Source: an uncultured Woeseiaceae bacterium (lineage in GTDB: Bacteria > Pseudomonadota > Gammaproteobacteria > Steroidobacterales > Woeseiaceae). Taken from it: a stretch of 43,977 bases of DNA. The stretch lies in assembly GCA_964522355.1 (NCBI GenBank), contig CAZFVT010000001.1:1-43977 (forward strand), given 5' to 3'. The notes below the pieces were generated by a model. The model was given only the letters and a program-made list of their open reading frames with translations, did not search any database and had not been told where the DNA came from. The translations under genes and the position numbers were made by a program. Positions 1,283 to 28,272 of the stretch are shown here, in pieces (position 1 is the first letter of the stretch; each line of letters opens with the position of its first letter).

Positions 1283-2209
1283 ATGGAATTCCAGCACGGC
1301 AACGCCATCTGCTATTCAGGCTACCGCGAAGGCCAGAGCCCGATTGACGGCACTTATCCAACGCGCGACCAGATCCGGGAAGACCTGCTGATCCTTCAGG
1401 GTCACTGGCAGTATCTGCGGCTTTACGACTGCAGTCCTCACGCGCAGATGGTGCTCGAGATCATCCAGACCGAAGGGCTCAACTTCAAAGTCATGCTCGG
1501 TCTCGATATGGCCGCTGAGATGAGTAACCCACATTGCCCGTGGGGAGCGGATTTCAGCGACGACGTGCTCTACGCGAATCGCGAGAAGAATGGGCGAGAG
1601 GCGAAGCGGCTGACGGAGCTCGCCAATGAATTTGCCGACGTCGTTTTCTCCGTGTCGGTTGGCAATGAGGCCAGCGTCGAGTGGACCGACCACATGGTTC
1701 CGGTCGAGAGCCTGATCGGTTACGTGCACGACGTGCGAAAGGCAATTGATCAGCCAATCACCTTCTGCGAGAACTACGTCCCCTGGACCTACAAGCTGGC
1801 GCCGTTGGCGGACGAGCTGGACTTCATCGCCATTCACACCTACCCCGCCTGGGAATACCGCTCCATTGAAGATGCATTGGAGTTCACCAAGGAAAACTAC
1901 CAGTCGGTGGTCGATCATTATCCGGGCAAGCCGGTCGTCATCACCGAAGCAGGCTGGACGACCGCGGCCAACGGTCGTGGCATAGAGCCGCACAATGCGT
2001 CGCAGGAGCTGCAGGCCGCCTATTATGAGCAGCTCATGGAGTGGTCAAACGCCGAGAAGATCCTGACCTTCGTGTTCGAAGCTTTTGACGAGCCGTGGAA
2101 AGGTTCACCCGACCCATTGGAACCCGAGAAGCACTGGGGACTGTTCGATGTCCATCGCAAACCCAAGCTGGTGATGCGCGATCGCTTCCGTAATCTCGCA
2201 AGCGCCTGA
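1283..2209 (+). CDS. Second GH17-like glycoside hydrolase, no signal peptide
   Basis: Same motif layout as the upstream paralog: SVSVGNEASVEW and VVITEAGWTT, with a C-terminal EKHWGLFD. Leaderless N-terminus MEFQHGNAICYSGY. 50-nt gap from the previous gene. Confidence 0.75.
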   Translation: MEFQHGNAICYSGYREGQSPIDGTYPTRDQIREDLLILQGHWQYLRLYDCSPHAQMVLEIIQTEGLNFKVMLGLDMAAEMSNPHCPWGADFSDDVLYANREKNGREAKRLTELANEFADVVFSVSVGNEASVEWTDHMVPVESLIGYVHDVRKAIDQPITFCENYVPWTYKLAPLADELDFIAIHTYPAWEYRSIEDALEFTKENYQSVVDHYPGKPVVITEAGWTTAANGRGIEPHNASQELQAAYYEQLMEWSNAEKILTFVFEAFDEPWKGSPDPLEPEKHWGLFDVHRKPKLVMRDRFRNLASA

Positions 2210-2227: not shown

Positions 2228-4051
2228 CTACTCGATGAAGCGTATGCTGTCGAGGTAGAAGGTCACGGGCGTCCGCCCGGCCACCGTCGTTACGACAAAG
2301 CCAGTTTTGATCGACGACAGGTCCTTGCCCCTGAGTGAAATCTCGTAGCGGGTCCACTCGTTGCTCAGCACGATGTTGTCTTCTTTGGCAATCGCCGAAT
2401 CGGAATAGTCGTTCGACTCATCGAGGAGACCGACTCCAAAGCTCACACGCTCGCCGCCGTACTGACCTCGTGCCCACAGCTCCAGCGCGCGTGCCTTGCC
2501 GAGATCGTAGCCCCCGTCCTGTTCTCCCCAGTTGTTGGGCGGGTTCTGCCAGGCAACGCCGACCCAGCCTGCCCGGCCCTCGTAGCGCATGCGAATGCTC
2601 CGATCGCCTTCGTAGACCTGCTCGGCGGAATCGCCGTCAACCGTCAGGTTGCCGGTATCACCCATCCAACCGGAGGGTGTCCAGGGCATGAAGTCGAAGC
2701 CGTCCTCGTAGACCGGGAACGGCAGCCTGGTCGTCACCTCTCCCTTCACGAGCAGTGGCAGGTTGGCCGTGCCGGCATTGCCGTCTTCATCGTAGACGTA
2801 ATAGAACAATCGATAGGGCCCGGGATAGCTCGGCAGCCGAACGGAAACTCCCGTCACGTCAGACTCCAGAATCGCACTCTCGATGTCTGGCATGTCGGGG
2901 CGGTAGTCGCCGCCCTGCGGAATATCAGGCGTTTCCGGCCGCAGTGCCCAGCGAGCCGTCAGCGCACCGCCCTCAGGGTCCGACGCCGTCGCAGACACGG
3001 TTATCTCATCACCCGGCTCAAGCTCAACCGGGCCTTCGTAGGTTAGCGGTTCGACGGCCGGTGCACGATTCGCGGGTGCCGTGCCGCTCCACAGCTCGGT
3101 CATGGTGTCGACGGCGGCGAGCCTGGCCCCATCTTTAAGGAACATGCCGAACCAGGTTTCCGTGACCTCCATCTTGTTGCCCCACAGGAAGGCGTAGCTT
3201 CCGAGGGCGACGTCGCTAGCCTCGAGAATGCCCTTCTCGTAGCTTTGACGATAGAAGTCGGCCTTCTGGCTGCTGGTGCCTTCGTAGGCAGCACCCCAGG
3301 CGGTCTCGCCGACTTCCCAGAACCCCAGCGGTCCGAACTCGCCAAGAATAAAGGGCTTTGTTGCGCCGCCGTCTCGCAGGAACTGCGGAACGACACCGGC
3401 GCCGCCGTACGCGTTCACTCCATGAATATCGATCGCCGGCGATTTGTGATGCAGATATTCGATCCGGCCGCCGTGAACGAAGGTCGTTACGCTCATGGTC
3501 GGATGGTTCGGGTCGACCTCCTTGACCATCGCCGCGATGTCGTTGACCGCTTGCCAGATGGCCGGGTCGTCACCGTCCTCAAAGCCCTCCATCTCATTGC
3601 CGATGCCCCACAGGAGCAACGCCGGGTGGTCCTTGTAGCGCAGCACAATGTCGCGCGCACGATTGAACTGGGTCTCAACCTGCTCAGGGTCGTTGTAGTC
3701 GAAGCCGTGACGTTCGTGGCCGAGCCAGATGCCGACCGTTACTGTCAGACCCAGCGCATGCGCCTCATCCAGGATTACGCCGACGTCTTCGTTGCCCCTT
3801 ACGTTCTCGGCGTCCCAGGTACGAACGGAGTTGCCACCGGCAGCGGCGAGTGCTTCAAGCGAGTGGTCGCCACCGGCCCCGCGAATGAAATAAGGCTCTC
3901 CGCCGCGGAAGAGCTGCCAGCCCTCGTCGGTTTTGCGGAGCTCTACAGGTACCGCCTCGGCCATAACCAACCCGGATGAAAAAAAAGGCCCTGCTAGAAG
4001 CAGGGCCTTCAGAATTACGAGACTCTTGTAACGACCAAAGAGTCTCCTCAT
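2228..4051 (-). CDS. Secreted clan GH-A-like glycoside hydrolase (TIM barrel) with an Ig-like middle domain and a C-terminal CBM-like beta-sandwich; CAZy family not assignable by eye
   Basis: Sec leader MRRLFGRYKSLVILKALLLAGPFFSSGLVMA/EA. NE pair in WGIGNEMEG (codons at 3593-3598) and candidate nucleophile in FILGEFGP (E at 3338-3340). The C-terminal 150 aa are rich in W, G and aromatics, like a carbohydrate-binding module. The ATG overlaps the stop of the upstream gene (ATGA at 4048-4051). Confidence 0.8.
   Translation of the reverse strand: MRRLFGRYKSLVILKALLLAGPFFSSGLVMAEAVPVELRKTDEGWQLFRGGEPYFIRGAGGDHSLEALAAAGGNSVRTWDAENVRGNEDVGVILDEAHALGLTVTVGIWLGHERHGFDYNDPEQVETQFNRARDIVLRYKDHPALLLWGIGNEMEGFEDGDDPAIWQAVNDIAAMVKEVDPNHPTMSVTTFVHGGRIEYLHHKSPAIDIHGVNAYGGAGVVPQFLRDGGATKPFILGEFGPLGFWEVGETAWGAAYEGTSSQKADFYRQSYEKGILEASDVALGSYAFLWGNKMEVTETWFGMFLKDGARLAAVDTMTELWSGTAPANRAPAVEPLTYEGPVELEPGDEITVSATASDPEGGALTARWALRPETPDIPQGGDYRPDMPDIESAILESDVTGVSVRLPSYPGPYRLFYYVYDEDGNAGTANLPLLVKGEVTTRLPFPVYEDGFDFMPWTPSGWMGDTGNLTVDGDSAEQVYEGDRSIRMRYEGRAGWVGVAWQNPPNNWGEQDGGYDLGKARALELWARGQYGGERVSFGVGLLDESNDYSDSAIAKEDNIVLSNEWTRYEISLRGKDLSSIKTGFVVTTVAGRTPVTFYLDSIRFIE
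3979..4009 (-). terminator. Intrinsic-terminator-like hairpin plus U8 tract, embedded in the signal-peptide codons of the 2228-4051 gene
   Basis: The minus-strand RNA reads AAGGCCCUGC-UUCUA-GCAGGGCCUU followed by UUUUUU(UU). The stem is 3985-4009 and the A-run on the + strand is 3979-3986. This is the only 8-nt homopolymer A/T run I found in the window. Confidence 0.45.
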
Positions 4052-4806
4052 AACTCGATGACCGAAACCACACCGTCGTTGAACAGCGGCGGGGTGGCCG
4101 GGAGGTAGTTGTATCCCCAGTCCAGTAACAGGCTCAGCACCAGGATTCGATCACCTTCGACGAGCGGCAGGAAACCGGTAGCTTCAGGTCGATAGAGATT
4201 ATCCGCGGTCAGCTGGTTGAGGCTGACGGGAAAGGGTACCGGCTCTCCATCCGGGCTGGATGCCGGACAGCAGGTGAAGACCGTCGCCGAACTGAAGAAG
4301 TTATCGAGAACAGACTGGTACGCCCTGAGCGCCTGCTCACGAATCAGCTCATCCTTGCTAAGCACGTTGCTGTTGGCGTCGAACAACTCGTGGAGTGCCA
4401 GCGCGGTGTAGAACTGATTCTCACCGGACTGTCTGCGTGCCAGTGCCGTTGCCCAGAAGTAGAAGCGCGCCTTGGCGCCCTGCGGTCCCGCCGGGATGGA
4501 GTTAAAGAGCTCGAACTTGTTCTCAGCGCCCGGGTTGTTCGGGTCAAACTCGCTGATTGGCGTGTTGGCGAACGGGTTTTCCGGATCTTCCAGAACGCAG
4601 GTTTCGTTGTAGATGCCTACGTCCGCGCAGTAGAGACCGAGTACGACGTCGGTCGGCAGGATGACCTGGTTGATGATCGTGCCGTCCGTTTCGTCGCGTT
4701 CCCCGTTGTTCTCACAACCGCTAATGCCCAGAACTGCCACCAGGACGATCGCAAGGAATCCCCTGGCGGAAGCCGACTGAGCCGTGAATCGATTAACGTT
4801 TTTCAT
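4048..4806 (-). CDS. Lipoprotein of unknown function, predicted mostly helical, encoded directly after the GH-barrel gene
   Basis: Start chosen at MKNVNRF (ATG 4804-4806; the ORF track starts at 4830). Lipobox VLGISG-C. No catalytic motif recognised. The stop overlaps the next start (ATGA). Confidence 0.7.
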   Translation of the reverse strand: MKNVNRFTAQSASARGFLAIVLVAVLGISGCENNGERDETDGTIINQVILPTDVVLGLYCADVGIYNETCVLEDPENPFANTPISEFDPNNPGAENKFELFNSIPAGPQGAKARFYFWATALARRQSGENQFYTALALHELFDANSNVLSKDELIREQALRAYQSVLDNFFSSATVFTCCPASSPDGEPVPFPVSLNQLTADNLYRPEATGFLPLVEGDRILVLSLLLDWGYNYLPATPPLFNDGVVSVIEL

Positions 4807-4840: not shown

Positions 4841-7800
4841 TTAGAAGTTGTAAGTGAAGTAACCAAGAACCAGGAACGAGTAGTCGTTCTGGCCGTCGAG
4901 GAATTCCTCGTCCGGCGAGTTCTCGTCGCTGGTGCGGAAGGTCGTTCGAATGCCAATCCTGGTTGCCGTCTGCTCGGCAATAGCGTTCGACACCGCACCG
5001 AAACCTGCGCCCAGCCACATGGAGTAGTCCAGCTGGATCTGTTCCGGGAAGGTGATGTTGAACTGCCGGAAGAAGTCATAAGGACCAAATCCATCCTTCC
5101 GGAAGTAGCCGGTCAGCGTGTGCTTGCCGTTACCCCAGATAGCACGACCGCTGAGGTTCCAGAACTTGCGCGTGCCGCCGTTCGGATCACCAGTCGACTG
5201 CTGGAATCCGCGCTCAACCCGGAGGATGTAGCGGTTCTTGTTCGAGGTGTTCCAGATTGCCCGGCTCGATAGTGACCAAACGTCTTCAGCCGGGAGGCCC
5301 TGGCCGAACGGCGCGTTGGCACCCGCCGGCTCGAAGAAGAACAGCTCGGAGTCCGTCTGGGTCGGGAATTCGGTGTAGGTGCCGCCGAAGTTGAACGCGA
5401 AGCTCGCGTCCTCACGCCAGTCGTTGTCCCAGTCGTAGAACGGCGTTGCGCCGGTCGGATCCCAGGTGAAGTAGATCTCGGCCGAACGTGCTTCGCGGTT
5501 GCCGAGAACGGCGAACGGGTCGTCGTCTCGGTTACGCGGGCTGATGCCGGGATTCAGGACGCCATCGACAATCTCAGGCTCGATAAACGGATTGGCGTGT
5601 ACCAGGTTGTCGCGATACATGATGCGCGGGAAGATCATCCAGTTGCCCAGGAAGATCTGCGAGCCCAGCTGATATTCGACGCGGTTACCCAGTGCGCTGT
5701 AGGGCAGTCGGCTCGGATCGGTCACACCGTAGGTCGGGATAGCCGCAACGGCTTCCGATACCAGGCCGGCGTAGGTGCCTTCGAGGTAGGTCTGCGTTCC
5801 CATGAACGGGAACGACAGGCGGCCTTTAAACGACAGCGTGTCTTCGAAATCGATCTGGTCGATGAAGATGTTGCCCTGCCTGTCGACACGGTCGAAGGTC
5901 TCGTCGATACGCTCCGGTGCCGAAACCATGGCGCCGAACTCCAGCTCCATGCCGTTAGAGAACTCCTTGGCGCCTGCCAGGGTGGTCTGCCTGGACTGGC
6001 GAACCGTCGCCTGGGTGAAGTTTGCACCCTGACCGAGTCGCGCGACGTCTTCCGAGTGGATGAAGGTCCAGTCGATGCTACCCAGGTTGAAGTCATACTT
6101 GACGATGAACTTCGGGTTGGCACCCCAGTAGACCTCCGGGCCGACAACAACCTTGAGGTTGCTCCACTTGCCCTTGCCGGCAAATTCGATGCCCTGCGGC
6201 GCCTTGGCGTCCCAGATGTCGATGCCGACGATATCGGTGGCTTCGGCAACGAGGCCGAAGAAGTCACCCTCATACTTCCAGTGGAATCGTGGCGTGTGGT
6301 AGAACGCCGTCGCATCGAAGTTCTCACCTTCGTAGGTCGCCTCGAAGTCGTAAATTTCGACTCGCTCGCGGTCGCTGAAGGTTACCGTCTCTTCCTGTAC
6401 CTCGACGAGACCACCGAAGAAGTTGTTCACGGTCTCGGCCTGGATGGTCAACGGCAGGCCGCGGTCACCGTAGTTGAACTCCAGTGGACGCTTGCGAGCG
6501 ACGTTGCCCAGCAGGTTGACCGTGAACTGTCCGGAGAGGTTCTCGGTCGGGTTGAAACCGAAATCGAGGAAGACCATCTGGCCGTCGGAGAATTCGACGC
6601 CGTCTTCACCCAGCTCGGTAACCTCCTGCTCGCGACCGCGGAGGGCGAACTCACCCTGGAAGCGACCGCCGGTGAACTGCAGCTTCTTGCTGGCTTCGTA
6701 GTTTTCACTTTTCAGCTTGTCGACTTCACCGCGCAGCTCGAGGAACTCGAGATTCATGTCGGCGAAGGCAGCGTTGATCTGGCCTTTGCTGGAGCCGTAG
6801 GGATCGATGGCAAACGCCTCAGACAGCACGTGATAAGCCATACGCGGGCGGGCGATGGACACGCCTTCGGCGTTCGTCGGACCGAGGGCCACAACTCCGA
6901 ACCACTCTTCGTTCATGTTGTTCTGGCCGGGAGCCCAGTCGAACAGATAGGCCTGGTTGGACCAGGAGGCGTTGGTGTCCTGGGTCTCGAGGTTCTCGGT
7001 CTGCAGGTACTTCCACCACTCATCGCGCCATTCAAAGACGAAGGCGCCAATCGCGTTACCTTCCTCGCCGTTGCCCCAGGCCTTGTTATACATCTCCTGC
7101 CACTGGTCCTTGAGGATCAGTGCCTGGGAAACCTGGTCTTCCTGGAACTCGCGGGCGTTGAAGGCATCGCTGCCGAACTCGAAGAACGCGACCGGCAGGT
7201 CCAGCTTCTCATCAACGGTCGCCCAGAGGTCCGTGAAGCTCGGTCCGCGGTAGACGTTGCTGCCAAGAATATCGAGCGAGGGCATTAGCTCAGCGATCAG
7301 ATCGATGTACTGAACGTCACCGTTAACGATCGTGAACAGGTGATCGGGTGCAATGGACTTGCCTTCCTGGATGACCTCTTCGAACAGGCTGTACAGGAAG
7401 CGTGCCTTGGCCGTGTTCTGCTCGCCTTCCGGCAGGTTTTCGATCTCGAAGCTGGACCAGGACAGGCCGTAGTTACTTTCGTTACCGAAGGCAAACATGA
7501 TTACCCCGGGCGTGTCCTTGTAGCGGCGGACGAAGTCGCCCATGTCGCGCTTCAGGATTTCGCGGGTTGTCGGGTCCGAATAGTCGGTGAACGGCACCCA
7601 CTTGCCGTTAATCGTGTAGCCGTAGCGACCCATCAGCGGGTTGATCACCGACATGATGCCGTATTCGCGATAGATGTATTCCACCCACTGCGGCGGGATC
7701 ATCGTGAAGCTACGAATCGTATTGACGCCGGCGTCGCGCAGCAGGCTGAAGTCGTAGTCCAGGATGGCGCGAATCTGCTCGTCACTCTGGCCAAACAGGT

Positions 7801-8014
7801 TGTAGGTGTAAGTCTGCCCGCGCGGCGAGTAGCTCCACACCATGCCCTTCATGAAATAGTCCTCGCCGTCGACCTGCAAACGCCAGCCCTGGTCATCTTT
7901 GACGGTCTTGACGTCGTGATACTGCGCGTGGACTGCCGGGGCACTCAAAAACAGCATGAGCGCGAGAAGTCCCCCGACTTCTTTCATTCTCGCGATTGCC
8001 CGTGATTTCGCCAT
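4841..8014 (-). CDS. Fusion protein: N-terminal clan GH-A-like TIM-barrel domain plus a C-terminal ~600-aa outer-membrane beta-barrel-like region, with no TonB plug
   Basis: Start chosen at MAKSRAIARMKEVGG (8014; the ORF track starts at 8068; 7987 is also possible). Sec leader ends AVHA/QY. NE in FAFGNESNYG (7478-7483) and FEFG (E at 7178-7180) parallel the 2228-4051 enzyme. The C-terminal part shows alternating aromatic/hydrophilic strands and ends LVLGYFTYNF, a terminal Phe typical of OMPs. Confidence 0.8.
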   Translation of the reverse strand: MAKSRAIARMKEVGGLLALMLFLSAPAVHAQYHDVKTVKDDQGWRLQVDGEDYFMKGMVWSYSPRGQTYTYNLFGQSDEQIRAILDYDFSLLRDAGVNTIRSFTMIPPQWVEYIYREYGIMSVINPLMGRYGYTINGKWVPFTDYSDPTTREILKRDMGDFVRRYKDTPGVIMFAFGNESNYGLSWSSFEIENLPEGEQNTAKARFLYSLFEEVIQEGKSIAPDHLFTIVNGDVQYIDLIAELMPSLDILGSNVYRGPSFTDLWATVDEKLDLPVAFFEFGSDAFNAREFQEDQVSQALILKDQWQEMYNKAWGNGEEGNAIGAFVFEWRDEWWKYLQTENLETQDTNASWSNQAYLFDWAPGQNNMNEEWFGVVALGPTNAEGVSIARPRMAYHVLSEAFAIDPYGSSKGQINAAFADMNLEFLELRGEVDKLKSENYEASKKLQFTGGRFQGEFALRGREQEVTELGEDGVEFSDGQMVFLDFGFNPTENLSGQFTVNLLGNVARKRPLEFNYGDRGLPLTIQAETVNNFFGGLVEVQEETVTFSDRERVEIYDFEATYEGENFDATAFYHTPRFHWKYEGDFFGLVAEATDIVGIDIWDAKAPQGIEFAGKGKWSNLKVVVGPEVYWGANPKFIVKYDFNLGSIDWTFIHSEDVARLGQGANFTQATVRQSRQTTLAGAKEFSNGMELEFGAMVSAPERIDETFDRVDRQGNIFIDQIDFEDTLSFKGRLSFPFMGTQTYLEGTYAGLVSEAVAAIPTYGVTDPSRLPYSALGNRVEYQLGSQIFLGNWMIFPRIMYRDNLVHANPFIEPEIVDGVLNPGISPRNRDDDPFAVLGNREARSAEIYFTWDPTGATPFYDWDNDWREDASFAFNFGGTYTEFPTQTDSELFFFEPAGANAPFGQGLPAEDVWSLSSRAIWNTSNKNRYILRVERGFQQSTGDPNGGTRKFWNLSGRAIWGNGKHTLTGYFRKDGFGPYDFFRQFNITFPEQIQLDYSMWLGAGFGAVSNAIAEQTATRIGIRTTFRTSDENSPDEEFLDGQNDYSFLVLGYFTYNF

Positions 8015-8084
8015 AGCGACTACTCTTTTATGGAGTTGATTGTTGTGTTTGTCATTGGTTGCGCACATGTCTTCATCGCCCCCG

Positions 8085-10625
8085 TCAGTCGATCGTTATC
8101 GACACGTTGTCGATGTACATGTCCTGAGCGCAACCGACAACGTCACCGCAGGCTGCGATCCACTGAATCGTGATACCTCCGGACGCGTCAGGACCGGTTG
8201 TCACGTTGTAGGTGCGCGTCTCCCAGTTCGCGATGCTGGCGGTGATTGACTCAAGAAACTCGTTCGTTGGCGGGTTATTGCTGTCATTCTCGGTCAGAAA
8301 CTCGATGTTGAAAGCCGCGCCCGGCTGCGTGATCGTGCCGCGAACGTCAAAGCGGATGGTCAGGTCCTGATTGGCCTGCACGGTGCCGACAGCGATACGC
8401 TCGAACTTGGCGGTTGGCGCTGCTGGCGCCGGCCCCGAGCCCGAGTACGAGTTCACAAGGTTCAGCGAGTACGTCCCAGACGACGGGTTGTTGGTCGATA
8501 CCGCGATGGTTCCGTCGTTCGGGAAATTCGTCCAGCCACTCTCGTCACCGGTCTCGAGATCGCCGTTGGTAACCAGGTTTCCGCCCGGCGCCGGCGGAGT
8601 GCCGCCGCCGGAATCGTCCTCGATGAGGGTCACGTCATCAATATCGACCGTGCTGGCGACCGTGCCGAGGTCGAACAGTGCACGGCTCTCGGCAACGCCG
8701 ACGCCCGTGCCCGAGTTCAGTTCCAGCGTGTAGGTCTGCCATTCGGTGGTTATCGCCACGTCCTGCGTTACCGAAGTGAACGGTGCACCGCTGAGGCCAA
8801 TGCCCGCGACGATATTGCGGTCGACCGTCGCCCTGGCGCGGAACGTCAGGGTGTAGTCGGTCTCCGTCTCGATCGCGGCAACCTGGCTCAGATTGGTATC
8901 GAAGACGTTACCGCCGGCCGCGGTGTCGACACTATAGAAGTTGTTCGTCGCCACGCCTCCGGCGTTGTACCACGGTGCCTTGTCCATTGTGCTGGTCTGG
9001 AAGTCGCCGTTCGTAAGCAACTCTGCTCCTCCCCCGGCTGCCACGAAGGAAACGTCATCGATATTCACGGTGCTCGCTACGGTGCCAAGGTCGAACAGCA
9101 CGCGGCTCTCGACCGGACCAATGTCAGCGCCGGTGTTGACGTTAAGCGTATAGGTCTGCCACTCCGTGCCGATCGACACAACCTCGGTCACCGAGACGAA
9201 CGGCGCCCCGCTCTGCCCAATGCCCGCCACAATGTCGCGGGCGACTGACGCTTTCGCCCGGAAAGTCAGGACGTAATCCGTACTCGCAGTCATCGCTGCG
9301 ACCTGGCTAAGGTTGGTGTCGAACACATTGCCGCCATCGGCCGCGTCAACCGTATAGAAGTTGTTCACCACAACATCACCGGCGTTGTACCAAGGCGCCT
9401 TGTCGGTATCGCTATCCTCGAAGTCCCCGTTGCTCAGCAGCGAGGAAGGACCGGGACCCGGACCAGGCCCGGGGCCGGGACCTCCGCCGCCAGCGCCGAC
9501 GGCAAAATCGTCGAAGTAGTAGGTCTGCGCGCCCGCGGTGGCACCATCGGTCCCAAAGTTCGGGAAAATGGTGATCTTGTTGTAGACCGCGGCCGGATCG
9601 TAGGCCGGCGTGCCGGACGCCTGCATGGAGAAGTCGAATTCGAGCGTCTCCCAGGTATCCGCCATCGTCGTCAGGGCTTCGGTTTCGACCGCCACGTCCC
9701 CATCCAGGGCATTCTCGACTTTCAGCCGAATGGGAACGTTCATCCCCGGGCTGCGAACCCGGACATTCATCCGAGGATCGGAGTCGTCGAGCGGAATATC
9801 CGGTACCGCTTCGTTCGGGCCAAGGGAAACGACGGTGCCTGCGAACACTTCAGCAGAGTCTGAACGGTTGTGTCGAACGACTTGGTTTGCAGCATCGTCC
9901 GGATCCGCAACTATCGACGAATCGTCACCGCCAGCGAAGCCTCGAACGCTGTAGGTCAGATCAGGGTCATCGAAGGTTATCGTGCTCCAGGTTGGCGGCA
10001 GCACGGGCCCGCCTTCACATTCTTCGACCTGCAGAATGTCGTCGTAGAAGAACGTCCAGTTCATTGGGTCGGTGTCGGCCTGGCCCAGCGTGCCATCGTC
10101 AAAGATAAGCGTTAGCCCGGCGTTCGGAATGTCGTTCGTGCGGCCCGTAAAGTCGTAACAGAGCTCTTCCCATTCGCCGCTTCCACTGTGGCGGAGAACG
10201 TCCTCGACGTTTTGCTGATCGAGTTTGAAGGTCAGAGCAACCGAGCGCGGTGACCAGACCTTGATGGTGAACGCTGCGCCTTGCGAGAAGTCATACGGCG
10301 TCCCTGTGTCGAGTAGCGTTCCACCGAACACCTGGTCGGGAAATTTCTGCATCTGAGCAACAGTGTCACTCGGGTTCAGATCGTTTTGATCCGGGTTCGG
10401 AATGACGGTTGTCGCACCACCGTTGAAGTTGATGATGTTGACCGCATCGCAGAGGATCTCGAAGTTGATCGCGTCGCAGAAACCCGGCGGAATCGGCGGC
10501 AGTGGCGTTGCCGGTTCGTTGGGAATGGATACCGGCCCGTCACCCTGGCCGCAGGCGGCAAGGATCGAGAGGGCGGCTAAGGACGTCAGCGAGCGCTTCA
10601 GGCGCGAGATGGCTGGTGCGTGCAT
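8085..10625 (-). CDS. Non-catalytic multi-CBM surface glycan-binding lipoprotein candidate
   Basis: Start chosen at MHAPAISRLKRS (ATG 10623-10625, GAGAA upstream). Lipobox LSILAA-C. Two N-terminal CBM-like beta-sandwich modules are followed by a (GP)6 linker, two tandem 140-aa CBM4/9-like modules (NGDFE...W) and a third 164-aa module. No hydrolase motif was seen. Confidence 0.8.
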   Translation of the reverse strand: MHAPAISRLKRSLTSLAALSILAACGQGDGPVSIPNEPATPLPPIPPGFCDAINFEILCDAVNIINFNGGATTVIPNPDQNDLNPSDTVAQMQKFPDQVFGGTLLDTGTPYDFSQGAAFTIKVWSPRSVALTFKLDQQNVEDVLRHSGSGEWEELCYDFTGRTNDIPNAGLTLIFDDGTLGQADTDPMNWTFFYDDILQVEECEGGPVLPPTWSTITFDDPDLTYSVRGFAGGDDSSIVADPDDAANQVVRHNRSDSAEVFAGTVVSLGPNEAVPDIPLDDSDPRMNVRVRSPGMNVPIRLKVENALDGDVAVETEALTTMADTWETLEFDFSMQASGTPAYDPAAVYNKITIFPNFGTDGATAGAQTYYFDDFAVGAGGGGPGPGPGPGPGPSSLLSNGDFEDSDTDKAPWYNAGDVVVNNFYTVDAADGGNVFDTNLSQVAAMTASTDYVLTFRAKASVARDIVAGIGQSGAPFVSVTEVVSIGTEWQTYTLNVNTGADIGPVESRVLFDLGTVASTVNIDDVSFVAAGGGAELLTNGDFQTSTMDKAPWYNAGGVATNNFYSVDTAAGGNVFDTNLSQVAAIETETDYTLTFRARATVDRNIVAGIGLSGAPFTSVTQDVAITTEWQTYTLELNSGTGVGVAESRALFDLGTVASTVDIDDVTLIEDDSGGGTPPAPGGNLVTNGDLETGDESGWTNFPNDGTIAVSTNNPSSGTYSLNLVNSYSGSGPAPAAPTAKFERIAVGTVQANQDLTIRFDVRGTITQPGAAFNIEFLTENDSNNPPTNEFLESITASIANWETRTYNVTTGPDASGGITIQWIAACGDVVGCAQDMYIDNVSITID
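8607..9446 (-). repeat. In-frame tandem duplication of a 420-nt (140-aa) CBM-like module
   Basis: The Phe codon of NGDF(E/Q) is at 9420-9422 in unit 1 and 9000-9002 in unit 2, exactly 420 nt apart. Shared blocks include KAPWYNAG, NNFY-VD, GGNVFDTNLSQVAA, IVAGIG-SGAPF, TEWQTYTL and LFDLGTVASTV-IDDV. Confidence 0.85.
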
Positions 10626-10772
10626 GGTCGGATTCTCTAATTTGGTGTTTGAGTTTCTTGTGCGTCGTTCTGCGATGCCTGACTGAATTCCACCCTGCGG
10701 CGAAATCTGCCGCAGCACTCTGTTGGAAATCATCGATCCATCCCGACGATCTTCGGTTTCATGTTGCGGACA

Positions 10773-13307
10773 TCAATCGATCGTGATTGAAACGTTGTCG
10801 ACGAACATGTCTATTGAGCAGCCGTCGACATCACCACAGCCTGCGTTCATTTGCAGAGTCACGCTGGTTGCGTTCGGATCAGTCGTGATGTTGTAGGTTC
10901 GTGTTTCCCAGTCGGCGATGCTTTCAGTAATCGTTGCGAGAGTATCCGGAGGCGGAGCCGTTCCGGAGTCAACCTGCGTAAAGAGCAGTATGTTGAACGC
11001 CGCACCGGGCTGGTTGATTGTGCCGCGAACATCAATGGAAACCGTGATCGCCTGATTGCCTTCTATTACTCCCATGCCGACGTTTTCGTTTCTTGAGGTC
11101 GGAGACCCCGGCGCAGGTGCCGGCGAGCCTGCATAGGCAATGTTGTAGTTGAGCGAGTACATGCCGCTCGACGGGTTGTCGGTAGACACGCCGACAGTGC
11201 CGTCGCCCGCTCCGGTTACCCAACCGGTCGTGTCGCCGGTTTCCAGGTCGCCGTTAGTGACCAGGTTGCTGTCGCCTGCCCCGCCTTCGGTGGAGAAGTA
11301 CACGTCGTCGATATACACCGTGCCGAATGCCAGTGCGTCCATGCTGTCTTTCGGATTCCAGAAGCCGAGATTGGCCGCGGTATCGAAAGTCGTCGCCGGG
11401 AAATCGGCCAGCGGAATCGCATAGGTCGCCCAATTACCAGACATGACCGGCGTGTAGGCAGACAGCAGGACATTGGTGCCCGCCGCGCCGGCGCCCGGCG
11501 GTTCGATCTGCACGGTCAGGTCGCCGAAGTCGGCAATACCGGAGGTATCGATCGTGAAGTTCAAGGTGTCGTAGGCCGTCAGGTCCACGCTGCCGAAGCC
11601 AAGGAGAACGCCGCCGAAGGACGAGCCGCTGTCCTGGTAATCGACCTCGAGGACGACGCTGCCCTCAGGAGCAGGAACCGCCATGCTCATGGGGTTTGCA
11701 ACCGTATTGTTGCCGCCGAAATCGATGCTGTTGGTAAAGCCGGTCACGGTGATCGGCGCCTCGGTCATCGTTTCGGTGAATACGCCCGCAGTGCCTGGGC
11801 CGTGATCGGCGAAGAAGCCAGTGAAGCCGATGTCCGTTAGCAGATAGCTGAACGGCGCGCCCTGGTTACCCAGCGGTCCGATGAGGAAGCCGCTGTTGAC
11901 GGGCGTCGTGGCGATGAAATCAGACATCGGAATCTCGACTTGCAGCCAGCCGTCGCCGATATCAGTAGCGCCTTCGTAGGTAGTCAGGTCATAGACCACG
12001 CTGGTGTCGCCACCGTTGATGAACTTGACCTCCCATTCGTCGAGGTTCGCTTCGTCACCCTTGACCTTGAAGACCAGGTTTTCAAAGTTCTGAGCAAAGC
12101 CTTCGGCGTAACCATTAAAGGCGATGAAGCCGACATGAACGCCGGCGCCATAGCCTTCGCCGCTGGTTACCTGGATGGCCGGATTAAAGGCGTCATCCAT
12201 GGCGTAAGCGGTGTCAAATACCGCGCCGGAGCCGAAGTTATCGATGGCAGGCGGTGCCAGGTCTTCCTCAACGTCGGGATCCGTCGCGTAGACGACGCCT
12301 TCGGGCAGGATGTCGCCCGGGCGGCCGCCTGAGTAGACGCGAACATAGTCAACCTTCATCTCGGCCGGGAGGGCCAGGTCTGAATCCGGCTGGCCGGGGA
12401 ATTCACCGCCGACGGCCAGGTTCAGGAGAATGTGGAAGGGCTGGTCAAACGGTGCCGGGTACGGCGCTGCCGTAGAGAACCAGTTGTTCTGGACCGCGTA
12501 CAGCGTGTCGTTGAAGTACCAGCGGATCTCGTTCTCTTCCCACTCCACTGCGTACAGGTTGAAACCCGCGGTTACGTCTACCGAGGGCGTGAACTCCACG
12601 CTGGTGTTTTCCTGGTTGGGGAACTCGCCACCGTAGTAGATGGTGCCGAAAATGTTGTTGCCACCGCCCTTCGCGAACTCGGGCGGAACGTCCTGGCGTG
12701 GCACACCGCCCAGGTTGACGGCCTCCATGATGTCGATTTCGCCGGTTGCCGCCCAGCTGCCGTACGGGCTGTCCTGGGAAAGCATCCAGAATGCCGGCCA
12801 GAGGCCCTGGCCCGCCGGAAGCCGGATGCTGGCCTCAATTCGGCCGTACTTGAAGGCAAAACGGTCCTGCGTGTTCAACCTGGCAGAGGTGTAGTTAAAG
12901 CCGGCGATGCTCTCGCGCTGCGCGGTAATCGTGAGAATGCCGCCCTCGACGCTGGCGTTGTCAGGCAGGTAGTACTGCAGCTCGTTGTTGCCCCAGCCCG
13001 GCGGCAAGCCCTGCTCGTCGCCGTCGCCCGTAGCGAAGAACCACTTTTCCGGGTCAATGGAGTTGCCGTTGAACTCCTCGCTCCATACGAGCTCCGGTTC
13101 CTGGCCCATCATTACCGGGAAGGTCCGCGGAATCTCCAGCGTCGGATCGCTGATGTTCTGGTTGTTCTGCGGGATATCTGGCGTCGCGTCCGGAATCGGT
13201 GTTACCTGTGAAAACACCGGTTCGCGGCCGTTGTCGACACAGCCTAGCGTGAGTACGAGCGCGGAAATAGACAGCGCAACAGATGCGCGTCGTCGTAGAC
13301 GTAGCAT
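10773..13307 (-). CDS. GH16 endo-beta-1,3-glucanase (laminarinase) with three C-terminal CBM-like modules; probable lipoprotein
   Basis: Start chosen at MLRLRRRASV (ATG 13305-13307 with GGGGGGA upstream). The leader ends LTLG-C. Canonical GH16 catalytic motif TGEIDIME at 12723-12746, plus WPAFWML. The C-terminal 164 aa are paralogous to the end of the 8085-10625 protein. Confidence 0.92.
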   Translation of the reverse strand: MLRLRRRASVALSISALVLTLGCVDNGREPVFSQVTPIPDATPDIPQNNQNISDPTLEIPRTFPVMMGQEPELVWSEEFNGNSIDPEKWFFATGDGDEQGLPPGWGNNELQYYLPDNASVEGGILTITAQRESIAGFNYTSARLNTQDRFAFKYGRIEASIRLPAGQGLWPAFWMLSQDSPYGSWAATGEIDIMEAVNLGGVPRQDVPPEFAKGGGNNIFGTIYYGGEFPNQENTSVEFTPSVDVTAGFNLYAVEWEENEIRWYFNDTLYAVQNNWFSTAAPYPAPFDQPFHILLNLAVGGEFPGQPDSDLALPAEMKVDYVRVYSGGRPGDILPEGVVYATDPDVEEDLAPPAIDNFGSGAVFDTAYAMDDAFNPAIQVTSGEGYGAGVHVGFIAFNGYAEGFAQNFENLVFKVKGDEANLDEWEVKFINGGDTSVVYDLTTYEGATDIGDGWLQVEIPMSDFIATTPVNSGFLIGPLGNQGAPFSYLLTDIGFTGFFADHGPGTAGVFTETMTEAPITVTGFTNSIDFGGNNTVANPMSMAVPAPEGSVVLEVDYQDSGSSFGGVLLGFGSVDLTAYDTLNFTIDTSGIADFGDLTVQIEPPGAGAAGTNVLLSAYTPVMSGNWATYAIPLADFPATTFDTAANLGFWNPKDSMDALAFGTVYIDDVYFSTEGGAGDSNLVTNGDLETGDTTGWVTGAGDGTVGVSTDNPSSGMYSLNYNIAYAGSPAPAPGSPTSRNENVGMGVIEGNQAITVSIDVRGTINQPGAAFNILLFTQVDSGTAPPPDTLATITESIADWETRTYNITTDPNATSVTLQMNAGCGDVDGCSIDMFVDNVSITID

Positions 13308-13377
13308 TGAATCCCCCCAAATTGCACGAACAGAGAAGGTTCTGGGCCTTCTCGCTTTCGCTAGTGGTACCAAGTCA

Positions 13378-13883: not shown

Positions 13884-14801
13884 CTACCTGCCCGCGGCCC
13901 GTGTCGGACTTTGCGGCTCAGCAAACCGCGCCAGTATCCAGTCGCGCAGGCCCGCGACGCGATCTGCGCTCTCGTCGGTGGCCTGCCAGACGAGGAAATA
14001 GCTCATGTCAGTAACGAGCGGCTCCTCGAAGAGGGGAACGATCGTCTTCTGGCGAAACCACTGCTCCGCAATGGGAATCGGCACCAGGGCGGCGCCAATG
14101 CCCTGCTCTGCGGCGCGCACGACGGCAATCATCGAATCCAGCCGTGTAGCCTTGCTGTCTTCGGGAAACTCGATGCCGGTCGCGACCGACCACTGGCTCC
14201 AGGCTTTGGGAAACGACTCGTGCACAATGATCGGGAAGCGGCTGTTAATGCGCTTCTCAGTCACTTTGAGAGATTTGCTGAAATCTCGGGATCCCGCCGG
14301 CATGAGCTTCAGCGGAAACAGCAGGCGCGATTCAACGTTCTTCGGTGGCGTCCGGAACAATCGGATGGAAAGGTCGGCGTCCGCGGGGTGACTTTCGGCA
14401 CTCTCATCGCTGGCGGACACATCGATGTCCAGATCCGGATTGGCGTCGGTGAACTCCCCCAACCGCGGCACGAAGAACTCGCTGGCGAAAAAAGGCTGCA
14501 CCGACACGCGTATCGAGCGACGCTTCGGCCCCTCGCGATAGTTGCTGACGACCCGATCCATCTGCTCGATCAGCGGACCCACTTCGGCATAGAGGGCCTG
14601 CCCGGTCGGCGTGAGCTTAAGCTCGCGAGCATGACGATCGAACAGGCGCTGCCCGAGCTCCTCCTCCAGGCTCTTGATCTGGTGGCTGACGGCAGACGGT
14701 GTGATGAACAGCGCATCACCGGCAGCACTGAAGCTCTCATGGCGCGCGGCGACGCAAAAGGTACGCAAGCCGCGGAGCGAAGTCGTTTGTCGTGTCTTCA
14801 T
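13884..14801 (-). CDS. LysR-family transcriptional regulator
   Basis: N-terminal wHTH LRTFCVAARHESFSAAGDALFITPSAVSHQIKSLEEELG and a C-terminal substrate-binding fold of typical length (305 aa). Divergent from the transporter gene. Confidence 0.9.
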   Translation of the reverse strand: MKTRQTTSLRGLRTFCVAARHESFSAAGDALFITPSAVSHQIKSLEEELGQRLFDRHARELKLTPTGQALYAEVGPLIEQMDRVVSNYREGPKRRSIRVSVQPFFASEFFVPRLGEFTDANPDLDIDVSASDESAESHPADADLSIRLFRTPPKNVESRLLFPLKLMPAGSRDFSKSLKVTEKRINSRFPIIVHESFPKAWSQWSVATGIEFPEDSKATRLDSMIAVVRAAEQGIGAALVPIPIAEQWFRQKTIVPLFEEPLVTDMSYFLVWQATDESADRVAGLRDWILARFAEPQSPTRAAGR

Positions 14802-14940
14802 CGCTGTCTTTCGGATCCGATTTAGCAGTCATCGCCGTGCAGACCGGCGCTTACACGCTCACCTTAAATGACGATGGTCTTAACCGCTGGACTCCCGCAC
14901 CCCGTCTCGTAGTGCGTTTCGATCATTATAGGCACATGTT

Positions 14941-14954
14941 TGACAGCGCTGTCA
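14941..14954. promoter_or_regulatory. Perfect 14-bp palindrome TGACAGCGCTGTCA overlapping a TTGACA -35-like box upstream of the GPH transporter
   Basis: Perfect dyad with a central CG. TTGACA is at 14940-14945. Candidate -10 elements (CAATAT or TATGAT) lie 17-20 nt downstream. The palindrome is 58 nt upstream of the ATG at 15012. Confidence 0.55.
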
Positions 14955-15011
14955 GGCTACCGCAATATGATTTGGCGGCGATCCGTCGCGGGGGGATAAG
15001 GCAAAACAATA

Positions 15012-16457
15012 ATGAGCGAAGGCACGCACTTCGAGACTGCTGCCGCCGATAGAATTCCGTTTCACCAGAAGCTGATCTACGGCCTCGGCGCATTCGTCAA
15101 TAACACGCTGGCTGCCGGCATCGGCAACATGATCATCGTTCTGAACCTCGGCCTCGGGATGAACCCGGCCCTCGTCGGCCTCCTGAGTTCCCTGCCGCGG
15201 CTGACCGATGCGATCACCGACCCGCTGATGGGTTACATCTCGGACAACACCCGCTCGCGCTGGGGACGTCGCCGGCCTTACATTTTCTTCGGCGCCATTA
15301 CCGTCGGCATTGTCTTCGCGTTGCTGTGGCAGCTGCCGCGCGGCATGAGCGAGTCCTTTTATTTCACCTACTTCCTGATCGGCTCGCTGATCTTCTTCCT
15401 CGCCTACACCGCCTTCGCCACCCCCTGGGTCGCGCTCGGCTACGAGATGACGCCCGACTACCACGAGCGCACTCGCCTCATGGGCGTGCAGAACTTTATC
15501 GGCAACATCGCTTACATGATTTCGCCGTACTTCCTGCCGTTCATGTATGCGCTCGGTACCTACTTCGATTCGGACGTGGTTACCGGCGCGGCGCGGCTCT
15601 CGATCATCATCGCCGTCGTGGTCATCGCGATGGGTATCCTGCCGGCAATCTTCCTGCGCGAACGCTTCAACGCGTCCGACGAAGAGGTGGACCCGAATGC
15701 GCCGAAGCGGACGCTGGGCGGCGAAATCATGAAGTTCCTGCGGGGCTTCGGCACGACGCTCAAGTTCAAGCCCTTCCTTAAACTGTGTATCGCGACGTTC
15801 CTGGTATTCAACGGCTTCATCATGATCGCCGCCTTCCAGTCGTACGTGATCATCTTCTACATCTTCGGCGGCGACCAGGCGGAAGGCGCCAACTGGGTCG
15901 GGCATTCCGGCCTCGTGCAGGCCATCTCGGGTTTCCTGGTCATCATCCTGATCACCTGGCTGGCAACCAAGATCGGCAAGCGCCGCGCTTTCTACGTTTC
16001 CACCGGCGTGTCGATGATCGGCTATGCGCTCAAATGGTTTTGCTACACGCCTGACAATCCGTGGCTGCTGCTGATTCCGGCACCGCTAATGGCCTTCGGT
16101 CTGGCCGGGCTCTTCACCCTGATGCCATCGATGGTTTGCGACGTCGTCGATGCCGACGAGCTCAATACCAACGAGCGACGTGAGGGCATGTACGGGTCCA
16201 TCTTCTGGTGGGTCGTGAAACTGGGGCAGGCCGCGGCATTTGCCGCCGGTGGTGTGCTGCTGAACCTGACGGGCTTCGATATTGATCTGGGCGGAAACCA
16301 GACGGCCGACGCCATCGTCAGGATGCGCCTGCTGGACGCGTTCGTGCCCTGCATCGCCTCCGCAATTGCTATCTGGGCCATCGCCAGCTACTCCATCACC
16401 GAGGAAAAGGCGCACGAAATGCGCCTCCAGCTCGAGGAGCGCCGCGGCGCAGCATAA
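15012..16457 (+). CDS. MFS glycoside-pentoside-hexuronide (GPH) family sugar:cation symporter
   Basis: GPH signature region LTDAITDPLMGYISDNTRSRWGRRRPYIFFG. About 12 hydrophobic segments. 481 aa. Confidence 0.9.
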   Translation: MSEGTHFETAAADRIPFHQKLIYGLGAFVNNTLAAGIGNMIIVLNLGLGMNPALVGLLSSLPRLTDAITDPLMGYISDNTRSRWGRRRPYIFFGAITVGIVFALLWQLPRGMSESFYFTYFLIGSLIFFLAYTAFATPWVALGYEMTPDYHERTRLMGVQNFIGNIAYMISPYFLPFMYALGTYFDSDVVTGAARLSIIIAVVVIAMGILPAIFLRERFNASDEEVDPNAPKRTLGGEIMKFLRGFGTTLKFKPFLKLCIATFLVFNGFIMIAAFQSYVIIFYIFGGDQAEGANWVGHSGLVQAISGFLVIILITWLATKIGKRRAFYVSTGVSMIGYALKWFCYTPDNPWLLLIPAPLMAFGLAGLFTLMPSMVCDVVDADELNTNERREGMYGSIFWWVVKLGQAAAFAAGGVLLNLTGFDIDLGGNQTADAIVRMRLLDAFVPCIASAIAIWAIASYSITEEKAHEMRLQLEERRGAA

Positions 16458-16609
16458 GCGGCCGGCCGACAGGCCTGCCGGGCGCAGAAGCGCGGCGGGC
16501 CTCCAAACTGACGGCAAATCCGCCTCGGGCGTTCTGTAAAACTGCGACCCGTGACCGGACGAGCCGGCCTCCAGATGTTGCAATACGGGACTGATTCCAG
16601 GACCCGTGC

Positions 16610-17527
16610 ATGCTGTTCATACCCTTCAAGTTCGATCTGAGCCTGTCGAAGATCCCCTACCTGACGATCGTTGTCTGTCTGATCTGCATCGGCGTTTATT
16701 CCCAGCAGTTCGCCAACGAGATCGAGTTTCACGAACAGACTTATGCCTATTGCGATCAGTCCATGTCGCATTCGCAGCGCATGTCCATGGAGAAGGCACT
16801 GGGTGACGGCAGCGCCGAGGGATGCGTGGCGTTGATGTATGAGCTCACGCTGGCAGACGATCCGAAGGAAGTAGTCAAGAGCTACGCCGCGAACGCTGAA
16901 AAGTTTGCGGCCTTCAGCAAGGAAGACAGCCGGCTATTTATCGAAGACTTTCTGATGCAGAAATACGAGGGCTATCTGCGCAACGTGCCGCCCTACCAGA
17001 CGAAATCTCTTTGGTATGTGCCGGACAGCTGGAATCCCGTGACGATGGTGACCTCAACCTTCTCGCACGGGAGTTGGGATCACCTCATTGGCAACCTGAT
17101 CTTCTTTTTCGCCTTTGCCGCGGCCGTCGAGCTAATCGTTGGTTCGCTGGCGTTTCTCGGCATCATCCTGTTTATGGCATTCGGCACCAACGTCGCCTAC
17201 TCGCTGGCGATGAGCTCGGTGGAGAACGCGCTGCCGACGGTCGGCCTCTCAGGCGTCGTCATGGGCATGATGGCGATGCTCGCCTACTTTATGCCGACGG
17301 CGAAGATTCGCTGTTTCTACTGGTTTCTTATCAAGATCGGCACCGTTGCCGTGTCGGCCTGGATTCTGGCGCTGGTTTACGTCGGTCTCGATGTATGGAC
17401 CCTGATGTCCCAGGATGAGATGGGTGGGGTAAACCTCGTCGCCCATGTGAGCGGTGCCGTAATTGGTGTACTGCTCGGAGCGACCCTGTTTCGCCGCCAG
17501 AAGCGAATGGTTGCCGTCGATCTCTAG
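16610..17527 (+). CDS. Rhomboid-family intramembrane serine protease
   Basis: HGSWDHLIGNLIFF, catalytic GLSGVVMG (GxSG) and AHVSGAVIG (His). A long loop follows TM1. Confidence 0.85.
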   Translation: MLFIPFKFDLSLSKIPYLTIVVCLICIGVYSQQFANEIEFHEQTYAYCDQSMSHSQRMSMEKALGDGSAEGCVALMYELTLADDPKEVVKSYAANAEKFAAFSKEDSRLFIEDFLMQKYEGYLRNVPPYQTKSLWYVPDSWNPVTMVTSTFSHGSWDHLIGNLIFFFAFAAAVELIVGSLAFLGIILFMAFGTNVAYSLAMSSVENALPTVGLSGVVMGMMAMLAYFMPTAKIRCFYWFLIKIGTVAVSAWILALVYVGLDVWTLMSQDEMGGVNLVAHVSGAVIGVLLGATLFRRQKRMVAVDL

Positions 17528-28271: not shown

Positions 28272-28272
28272 A

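Follow-up and report, generated by a model that had tools for sequence, protein, structure and literature searches.

Laminarin, the algal beta-1,3-glucan, ranks among the largest fluxes in the marine carbon cycle. Current models of how bacteria bring polysaccharides across the outer membrane invoke either TonB-dependent SusC-like transporters or small porins that follow extracellular digestion. In SusC/SusD loci the gene for a large outer-membrane barrel is followed by a lipoprotein gene, and beside the barrel stand genes for GH16 and carbohydrate-binding module (CBM) lipoproteins, GH158, an inner-membrane importer and a regulator; a beta-1,3-glucan locus of Bacteroides uniformis with GH16, GH158 and GH3 is an example (PMC7157763). 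Here we describe a gene that occupies the same place in a locus of the same layout, and that encodes a glycoside hydrolase (GH) domain fused to a large, predicted outer-membrane beta-barrel. It comes from an uncultured Woeseiaceae bacterium (GenBank assembly GCA_964522355.1, contig CAZFVT010000001.1, positions 1 to 43,977; this 43,977-nucleotide stretch is called the window below). We favour, at a probability of about 50%, the reading that the protein forms a TonB-independent channel through the outer membrane, by which beta-1,3-glucan chains or oligosaccharides pass, and that its endoglucanase is tethered at the periplasmic mouth. Its kind would be a familiar one, the outer-membrane channel by which a glycan utilisation locus admits its specific substrate; what is new is an unnamed barrel family and the fusion of enzyme and barrel.

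Two other groups of described systems come close. Like the substrate-specific, TonB-independent glycan porins (the maltoporins LamB/ScrY, the chitoporin ChiP, CymA, KdgM/NanC and OprB), the fusion is probably an energy-independent channel encoded within the catabolic locus of its substrate, an arrangement that the enzyme-free members of the new family (see below) match exactly; the fusion shares no sequence kinship with these porins, however, has about 26-28 estimated strands against their 12-18, and belongs to a family most of whose members carry the GH domain. The Formosa protein FbGH17B, in which a major facilitator superfamily (MFS) transporter is joined to GH17, has the same substrate and the same logic of joining a beta-1,3-glucanase to a transporter, and its authors knew of no other fusion of a transporter with a carbohydrate-active enzyme (PMC6246565). 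There, the transporter is an alpha-helical protein of the inner membrane and the enzyme a GH17, whereas here an outer-membrane barrel is joined to a GH158-like domain.

The fusion gene and its parts are listed here, with coordinates in the window; domain limits rest in part on an AlphaFold2 (AF2) model.

4841..8014, minus strand: fusion gene, 1057 amino acids (aa), stop codon 4841-4843, from the open reading frame (ORF) list, its translation and full-length homologues of 1050-1080 aa
7925..8014, minus strand: Sec (type I) signal peptide MAKSRAIARMKEVGGLLALMLFLSAPAVHA, cleavage before QY, read by eye
6842..7924, minus strand: GH158-like (beta/alpha)8 catalytic domain, residues 31-391, from AF2, Foldseek and profile matches
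7478..7480, minus strand: Glu179 in FAFGNES, predicted acid/base, aligned with the GNES Glu of GH158(Pro)
7178..7180, minus strand: Glu279 in FFEFGS, predicted nucleophile, aligned with the TEFG Glu of GH158(Pro)
6683..6841, minus strand: helical linker, residues 392-444, from DSSP of the AF2 model
4844..6682, minus strand: C-terminal beta-barrel domain, residues 445-1057, from AF2 strands, Foldseek and composition
6245..6304, minus strand: conserved segment FYHTPRFHWKYEGDFFGLVA, a predicted 34-residue loop with a low predicted local distance difference test score (pLDDT)
5405..5539, minus strand: conserved acidic/aromatic segments PRNRDDDPFAVLGNRE and DPTGATPFYDWDNDWREDA, predicted long non-strand regions
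4844..4873, minus strand: C-terminal beta-signal LVLGYFTYNF, with a conserved Y-x-F end

The single, uninterrupted 1057-aa frame of the original prediction was borne out, on the minus strand, which that prediction had left unstated; a plus-strand reading of 4841-8014 was rejected, its translation being full of stops. An ATG at 8068 would lengthen the frame to 4841-8068 (minus strand, 1075 aa), while the ATG at 8014 gives 1057 aa; because the closest homologues in a protein cluster search are 1057-1058 aa long, we adopted the 1057-residue numbering. All motifs quoted earlier (AVHA/QY, FAFGNESNYG, VAFFEFGS, LELRGEVDKLKSENYEASKK and the terminal YFTYNF) are found in the translation, and the four-part architecture built on them, of leader, GH-A domain, helical linker and C-terminal strands, is supported by both the sequence and the AF2 model (overall pLDDT 72.9, predicted template modelling score (pTM) 0.56). 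By inspection, the signal peptide has a basic n-region, a hydrophobic core and an A-x-A-like HA site. The linker consists of helices at residues 392-401, 410-418 and 422-441 (DSSP of the AF2 model), with a 20-residue charged helix directly preceding the first barrel strand.

A whole-protein scan gave no Pfam or NCBIfam match to the N-terminal domain, and a single-sequence search of the PDB matched BuGH158 (6pal, E 0.0027) and GH158(Pro) (9oro, E 0.019) weakly. With a profile of 38 close homologues the GH158(Pro) match improved to E 2.5e-5, and with a profile of diverse relatives to E 1.1e-12, with BuGH158 at 4.1e-11 and GH2 at best at 6e-5; across these sequence and profile searches of the PDB, matches to the fusion were limited to GH158 and GH2, all of them in the N-terminal domain. 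The top Foldseek matches of the AF2 model, whose enzyme-domain core has pLDDT 80-90, were both GH158 (9p26, E 1.6e-12; 6pal, E 2.7e-12), at target-normalised template modelling (TM) scores of 0.54-0.58, and GH2 glucuronidases ranked next. The clan GH-A TIM barrel proposed earlier therefore holds, with the GH158 endo-beta-1,3-glucanases as its nearest kin, as does its proposed collinearity with the soluble, canonical GH158 encoded at 2228-4051 (BLASTP, 26% identity over 344 aa, E 2e-13).

Both catalytic Glu positions named in the original prediction were recovered by alignment to GH158(Pro), and E179 and E279 are each invariant in the 38-homologue alignment. The catalytic pair of GH158(Pro) is the acid/base Glu143 and the nucleophile Glu229 (PMC13195107), with E137 and E220 as the BuGH158 equivalents (PMC7157763). 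The fused domain shares with BuGH158 and GH158(Pro) the clan GH-A TIM barrel and the Glu pair, and the mature N-termini align; its structural-alignment identity to characterised GH158 enzymes is about 13-15%, and it carries several insertions relative to them. The Ig-like domain of canonical GH158, which has eight strands and packs on helices alpha7/alpha8, was not found in the AF2 model of the fusion, where two short strands and three helices stand instead: the in-locus GH158 spans the Ig-like region, whereas in the fusion it is replaced by the helical linker and the barrel. Placed by search scores, the fused domain is probably a distant GH158 member or a sister group. It looks catalytically competent, and its predicted activity is that of an endo-beta-1,3-glucanase.

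The ~610 C-terminal residues, which the original prediction had taken for membrane-barrel strands, form a large beta-meander in the model, and outer-membrane barrels are the only structures that it matches. From residue 445, DSSP assigns an unbroken run of about 30 strands, mostly of 10-17 residues, in a hairpin meander; strand number and closure were read from the DSSP string and the Foldseek matches, and we estimate about 26-28 transmembrane strands in the model after discounting two short, loop-like hairpins. All non-GH Foldseek matches are outer-membrane barrels (BtuB-type TonB-dependent transporters (TBDTs), AlgE, LptD, FimD, MOMP and MtrB), at probability 1.00, E about 1e-7 and 640-735 aligned columns; because their TM-scores are only 0.22-0.40, the likeness to known barrels is generic rather than specific. 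As a test for a closed barrel, this gives matches to outer-membrane barrels only, at a pTM of 0.56. The domain contains 9.6% Phe, 10.2% Gly and no Cys, its hydrophobic runs are of at most 5 residues, and many of its strands show dyad hydrophobicity. F1057 is invariant and Y1052 and Y1055 are at least 90% conserved in the 38-homologue alignment, while of 39 distant relatives, 38 have a hydrophobic or aromatic final residue. The protein has the generic features of an outer-membrane protein (OMP) that depends on the beta-barrel assembly machinery (BAM), namely a Sec signal, an amphipathic antiparallel meander and an aromatic-ended beta-signal. In the AF2 model, every second junction between strands (2-3, 4-5, 6-7 and onward to 18-19) is a short turn and those in between are long loops, which fits the usual OMP topology in which strand 1 begins on the periplasmic side.

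Searches for a named family returned nothing. The barrel and four distant relatives had no Pfam match even at E up to 10, which includes the porin families LamB, OprB, KdgM and OprD/ChiP; no NCBIfam model matched the domain, its profile matched no PDB chain at E up to 5, and there was no Autotransporter or POTRA match in Pfam and no LptD C-terminal/OstA signal in Pfam or NCBIfam. These results point to an outer-membrane family that is new and unnamed. A degenerate TBDT was considered and rejected: Plug and TBDT models (PF07715, PF00593) did not match even at E up to 10, and hhalign gave the barrel profile a probability of 0.1% against the genuine TBDT of a related locus (L068). With this negative homology test, the likeness to the 22-strand TBDT barrel is a generic structural one. 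Because the mature N-terminus aligns with the first GH158 strand, there is no room for a TonB box.

The earlier statement that no TonB box or plug-like segment is present agrees with these searches, in which Pfam at E up to 10 and hhalign gave no Plug, TonB-box or TBDT signal. Of the term 'plug-less', the absence of a Plug domain stands; an empty pore is not established, because the conserved long loops and the conserved lipoprotein partner could gate or plug it. Indeed, the strongest conservation in the barrel domain among relatives of 23-47% identity falls in predicted long, non-strand acidic/aromatic segments (FYHxPRxHWxYEGDFFGL, GPExYWGANP, PRNxxDDPFAVxGNRE, DPTxATxFYxWDNxxxEDA and WGPYD). 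Of these regions, the segments PRNRDDDPFAVLGNRE and DPTGATPFYDWDNDWREDA are a candidate constriction or glycan-binding site, and the conserved loops may be lumen-lining or gating elements.

We searched 5.8 billion proteins for homologues of the fusion and found more than 3176 homologous clusters. The best 120 of these cover 79-100% of the query (96-100% apart from two shorter entries) at 62-91% identity, and nearly all of the 120 are unnamed or 'hypothetical'. When one genome of each GTDB species was scanned, at least 589 species proved to encode a relative, with matches spanning residues 1-1057 or 35-1034. Among the matches listed, carriers in the Gammaproteobacteria are Woeseiaceae, Lentisalinibacter orientalis, Thiothrix, Leucothrix and Chromatiaceae, those in the Myxococcota are Myxococcus, Corallococcus, Pyxidicoccus and Archangium, and others are Cloacimonadota, Gemmatimonadota, Fibrobacteraceae, Krumholzibacteriota, Delongbacteria and Desulfuromonadales; within this set the family is confined to diderm phyla. 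The fusion is also found in complete chromosomes and in cultured isolates, including Lentisalinibacter orientalis, Thioalkalivibrio sp. XN279, Corallococcus coralloides and Myxococcus sp. Y35; Wenzhouxiangella sp. XN24 has at least the partner lipoprotein. Some relatives carry an extra N-terminal CBM4_9. The conservation across genomes that the original prediction had asked to be checked is thus borne out by both the cluster and the species counts. An assembly or annotation artefact that joins two genes, through a missed stop or a frameshift, had been named as a way in which the prediction could fail; nothing was found in its favour, thousands of independent assemblies carry the fusion at full length, and we regard its probability as negligible. 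We take the architecture and the gene context as established, together with the conservation of the catalytic residues and of the fusion itself.

With the barrel domain as sole query, an exhaustive HMMER search returned only 285 clusters at 50% identity, mostly fusions of 1000-1130 aa. Most of the apparent stand-alone barrels (P0122, P0127, P0146, P0156, P0124 and P0147) proved to be N-terminally truncated metagenome fragments and were set aside. One clade (P0131, P0153, P0410 and P0444) is genuine: its members have 575-600 aa, a signal peptide of their own (…A|RGPDLP) and no enzyme. Stand-alone barrels lie at the following positions.

Locus L081, 10001..11767: stand-alone barrel
Locus L082, 10001..11791: stand-alone barrel
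Locus L083, 1568..3358: stand-alone barrel

These loci hold a LacI regulator, an ATP-binding cassette (ABC) importer with SBP_bac_5, GH1, a probably periplasmic GH16 and, beside a type I secretion system, a giant GH16 of 1174-1417 aa that has no signal peptide. The presence of stand-alone barrels in complete laminarin loci shows that the barrel has its own function, and the periplasmic GH16 in the same loci suggests that a separate periplasmic glucanase can replace the fused one.

In the window, the fusion lies within a tight minus-strand run that encodes, in order, a GH16-CBM lipoprotein, a CBM4_9 lipoprotein, the fusion, a 252-aa lipoprotein and GH158; neighbouring genes are separated by 39, 16-70 and 34 nt, and the final two overlap by 4 nt. 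About 0.5 kb upstream, likewise on the minus strand, lies the gene for a LysR-family regulator; an MFS_2 gene flanks the run on one side and a GH17 pair on the other.

4048..4806, minus strand: partner lipoprotein, 252 aa, lipobox LGISG|C, starting 34 nt after the fusion gene
2228..4051, minus strand: canonical GH158, 607 aa, type I signal peptide, secreted or periplasmic
8085..10733, minus strand: CBM4_9 lipoprotein, probable start 10625, lipobox LAA|C (Pfam CBM_4_9, 8.3e-16)
10773..13373, minus strand: GH16 laminarinase-type lipoprotein with CBMs, probable start 13307, lipobox TLG|C (Pfam GH16, 1.9e-18)
13884..14801, minus strand: LysR-family regulator (Pfam HTH_1 and LysR_substrate)
15012..16457, plus strand: MFS_2 sugar transporter, inner-membrane step (Pfam MFS_2, 4.9e-65)
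345-1232 and 1283-2209, plus strand: two tandem GH17 genes, no signal peptide (Pfam GH17)

The soluble GH158 matches GH158(Pro) over residues 31-435 (phmmer E 9.4e-101). The GH17 pair, lacking signal peptides, is probably cytoplasmic; such a location is unusual for GH17 glucanases and transglycosylases and suggests intracellular processing of imported oligosaccharides. The CBM4_9 and GH16 lipoproteins have in common a near-identical C-terminal motif, GCGDVxGCxxDMxxDNVSITID. A canonical intrinsic-terminator-like hairpin (3984-4010, minus strand; 12-bp perfect stem, 3-nt loop, T8) lies 38 nt past the stop codon of the partner lipoprotein, within the GH158 signal-peptide coding region. Its GCCCTGC…GCAGGGC stem and T-run are kept, with pairing-preserving changes, in seven loci (L042, L014, L001, L033, L003, L015 and L006), and it may be an attenuator that separates expression of the barrel and lipoprotein from that of GH158.

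No TBDT was found in the 44-kb window. Compared with SusC, the fusion lacks a Plug, a TonB box and similarity to TBDT profiles, and carries a covalently bound enzyme; the partner lipoprotein, at ~250 aa and with no Pfam match, is by that measure not SusD-like, and its AF2 model (pLDDT 41.8) was too poor to use. A second point of comparison is LptD/LptE, in which a barrel of 26 strands has a periplasmic domain at its N-terminus and is plugged by a lipoprotein; the fusion resembles it in the very large size of the barrel, in the soluble N-terminal domain and in the genetically coupled lipoprotein, and LptD and MtrB (of MtrB/MtrA) are among the structural matches of the fusion barrel. It differs from LptD, however, in having no LptD/OstA Pfam signal and another substrate and transport direction, and for its own lipoprotein the role of plug is hypothetical. 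Elsewhere in the window, a 705-aa lipoprotein (18259-20376, minus strand) has as its sole recognisable domain CarboxypepD_reg, the N-terminal module of Oar/SusC-like proteins, with no Plug or barrel detected. An ORF at 31837-32562 (minus strand) matches DegT/DnrJ aminotransferases only at profile positions 140-359 and is overlapped by an upstream ORF (32450-32908, minus strand); the two may be parts of one gene, frameshifted or split, within an O-antigen-like cluster (27225-34937).

We compared this neighbourhood with 80 related loci, of which 51 span at least 15 kb and served for gene counts and 68 were evaluable for lipoprotein adjacency. Of the 51, 49 have a GH16 gene, 28 MFS_2, 22 GH17 and 19 a canonical GH158. 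A homologue of the small lipoprotein is encoded immediately downstream of the fusion in 48 of the 68, including all loci evaluated from Gammaproteobacteria, Cloacimonadota, Desulfuromonadales and Myxococcota, which bears out the co-occurrence of fusion and lipoprotein that the original prediction raised. On a Cloacimonadales chromosome, for example, the locus comprises GH17, GH30, MFS_2, GH16, a regulator, the fusion and the lipoprotein, while in the Gemmatimonadota clade (L064, L065, L069 and L073) GH3 beta-glucosidase genes directly follow the fusion, replacing the small lipoprotein. In every phylum examined, the genes conserved alongside encode catabolic enzymes, importers and regulators that respond to sugars. 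Proteins of ~1100-1200 aa without a Pfam match also recur (L042, 18757-22356, minus strand; L020, 13923-17540, plus strand; L035, 13794-17123, plus strand), and may be GH149-like beta-1,3-glucan phosphorylases, as candidates only.

One Gemmatimonadota locus (L068) also encodes a protein of CarboxypepD_reg-Plug-TBDT architecture (14305-17316). A tblastn search with this TBDT, a crude test with a single query, matched 2 of 84 sequences, that is, one other, and weakly; the idea that a TBDT always lies nearby was rejected, the case of L068 not being conserved. The fusion always occurs in beta-1,3-glucan loci, with GH16, GH17, GH3, GH30 or GH1 and MFS or ABC importers, and almost never with a TBDT. 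The barrel, with or without its fused enzyme, is the constant outer-membrane component of these TBDT-free loci.

From these observations we infer a membrane barrel with a channel role, a periplasmic enzyme, and a coupling of hydrolysis to translocation that the gene context suggests. After Sec export, BAM would insert the C-terminal ~610 residues as a barrel of about 26-28 strands, which would serve as the passage of beta-1,3-glucan (laminarin) across the outer membrane; with no plug and no TonB box, this passage would not be TonB-energised. The GH158-like endo-beta-1,3-glucanase, tethered by its linker to strand 1, would most likely sit at the periplasmic mouth, where cutting of the emerging chains or oligosaccharides at their exit would maintain an inward gradient. 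Processivity has been reported for GH158(Pro) (PMC13195107); if the fused domain is processive too, the chain would also be ratcheted inward. The conserved acidic/aromatic loops and, in most lineages, the adjacent small lipoprotein probably form a constriction or gate, and the products would pass to the soluble GH158 or GH3, then to the MFS or ABC importer and finally to cytoplasmic GH17 or GH1. A periplasmic enzyme is favoured by the normal barrel topology with the domain joined to strand 1, by a barrel far beyond the size range of type V secretion barrels, and by the signal-peptide-bearing, probably periplasmic GH16 that fills the equivalent role in the stand-alone loci. A more ambitious form of this reading is tentative: a new class of importer in which a giant TonB-independent barrel threads whole laminarin chains, pulled inward by a covalently attached, possibly processive GH158-like glucanase that acts at the periplasmic exit as a hydrolysis or Brownian ratchet, with the pore gated by conserved in-barrel loops and a dedicated lipoprotein.

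Several points weigh against the channel with a periplasmic enzyme, and some of them lend themselves to other readings. Barrel closure, strand number and pore size rest on DSSP and on generic Foldseek TM-scores of 0.22-0.40, in a model of overall pLDDT 72.9 and pTM 0.56. An open pore of 26-28 strands would be leaky; its gating is a proposal, and the lipoprotein model is unusable. The GH16 and CBM proteins are lipoproteins for which either membrane face is possible, the CBM4_9 found at the N-terminus of some relatives is more often seen on enzymes whose contact with the polymer is extracellular, and L068 has a TBDT besides the fusion. Finally, a helix before strand 1 is also an autotransporter trait, so that a surface-exposed enzyme is possible.

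The last point leads to the main rival, which we consider unlikely but worth taking seriously, namely a surface-displayed glucanase: the barrel would be mainly an autotransporter-like membrane anchor and secretion device, with the helix running through its lumen and the enzyme facing out, and oligosaccharides from surface-cut laminarin would enter by the fusion barrel or another pore. Type V autotransporters with enzyme passengers such as EstA have the same order of signal peptide, enzyme, alpha-helix and C-terminal barrel, a cell-surface site of action has been proposed for the Bacteroides GH158 (PMC7157763), and the added CBM4_9 of some relatives would suit such a location, as would a TBDT, like that of L068, to do the importing. 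The fusion barrel, however, with about 26-28 strands and ~610 residues, is 2-2.5 times larger than those of autotransporters and contrasts with the 12-16 strands of all type V classes; it lacks any Autotransporter or POTRA signal in Pfam, and TBDTs are absent from nearly all loci. Since stand-alone barrels with no passenger occur in loci of the same type, the barrel is not merely an anchor. The same moderate confidence of the model, together with several long segments of pLDDT below 50, low TM-scores to barrels and best-conserved motifs that lie in 'loops', which is unusual for an OMP, would also suit a secreted glucanase of several domains whose C-terminal region is soluble and beta-rich, as a sandwich, propeller or solenoid. 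We consider this very improbable: against it stand the exclusively outer-membrane identity of the non-GH Foldseek matches at probability 1.00, the about 28 consecutive strands of 10-17 residues in a hairpin meander with dyad hydrophobicity, the OMP-like composition without Cys, the conserved terminal Y-x-F and the confinement of the listed relatives to diderm phyla.

Pairs of a hydrolase and a porin are typical of synthase-dependent exopolysaccharide systems, and the barrel could by analogy work outward, exporting a self-made beta-glucan that the periplasmic glucanase trims or clears, as in BcsC/BcsZ, AlgE/AlgL and PgaA/PgaB, or helping to place the GH16 and CBM lipoproteins on the surface. 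AlgE is indeed among the Foldseek matches and three lipoproteins are co-encoded, but no glucan synthase or glycosyltransferase is found among the conserved neighbours and Pfam detects no TPR domain; because every conserved neighbour is catabolic, we judge export improbable. The channel with a tethered, periplasmic endoglucanase is the reading that we prefer.

A full-text literature search, with most subscription journals outside its reach, found no description of an enzyme-barrel architecture of this kind. The original prediction had recognised no described transporter class in the protein, and neither the protein databases nor the literature searched give it a name. A Woeseiaceae study that lists GH158 in laminarin loci makes no mention of a barrel or porin, and GH158 was not found in its supplements. 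GluM, an Oar-type outer-membrane barrel of myxobacteria, is reportedly credited with beta-1,6-glucanase activity (Li et al., ISME J 2019; named in PMC10800785); it is said to be Oar/TBDT-like, with no recognisable GH domain, and is probably not related to the fusion by sequence.

The barrel family is abundant and takes the place of the transporter in laminarin loci, while its members are publicly annotated as 'hypothetical', and surveys based on SusC/D would fail to see in its barrel a part of an uptake system. Should the protein prove to be a channel with its own hydrolase, it would account for laminarin use by these lineages, offer a testable, energy-independent mechanism of polymer import and open a new family of outer-membrane barrels to structural work. 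It might even, as a possibility that we hold in some doubt, mean 'selfish' polysaccharide uptake without SusCD or TonB in Woeseiaceae, Cloacimonadota, Gemmatimonadota and Myxococcota.

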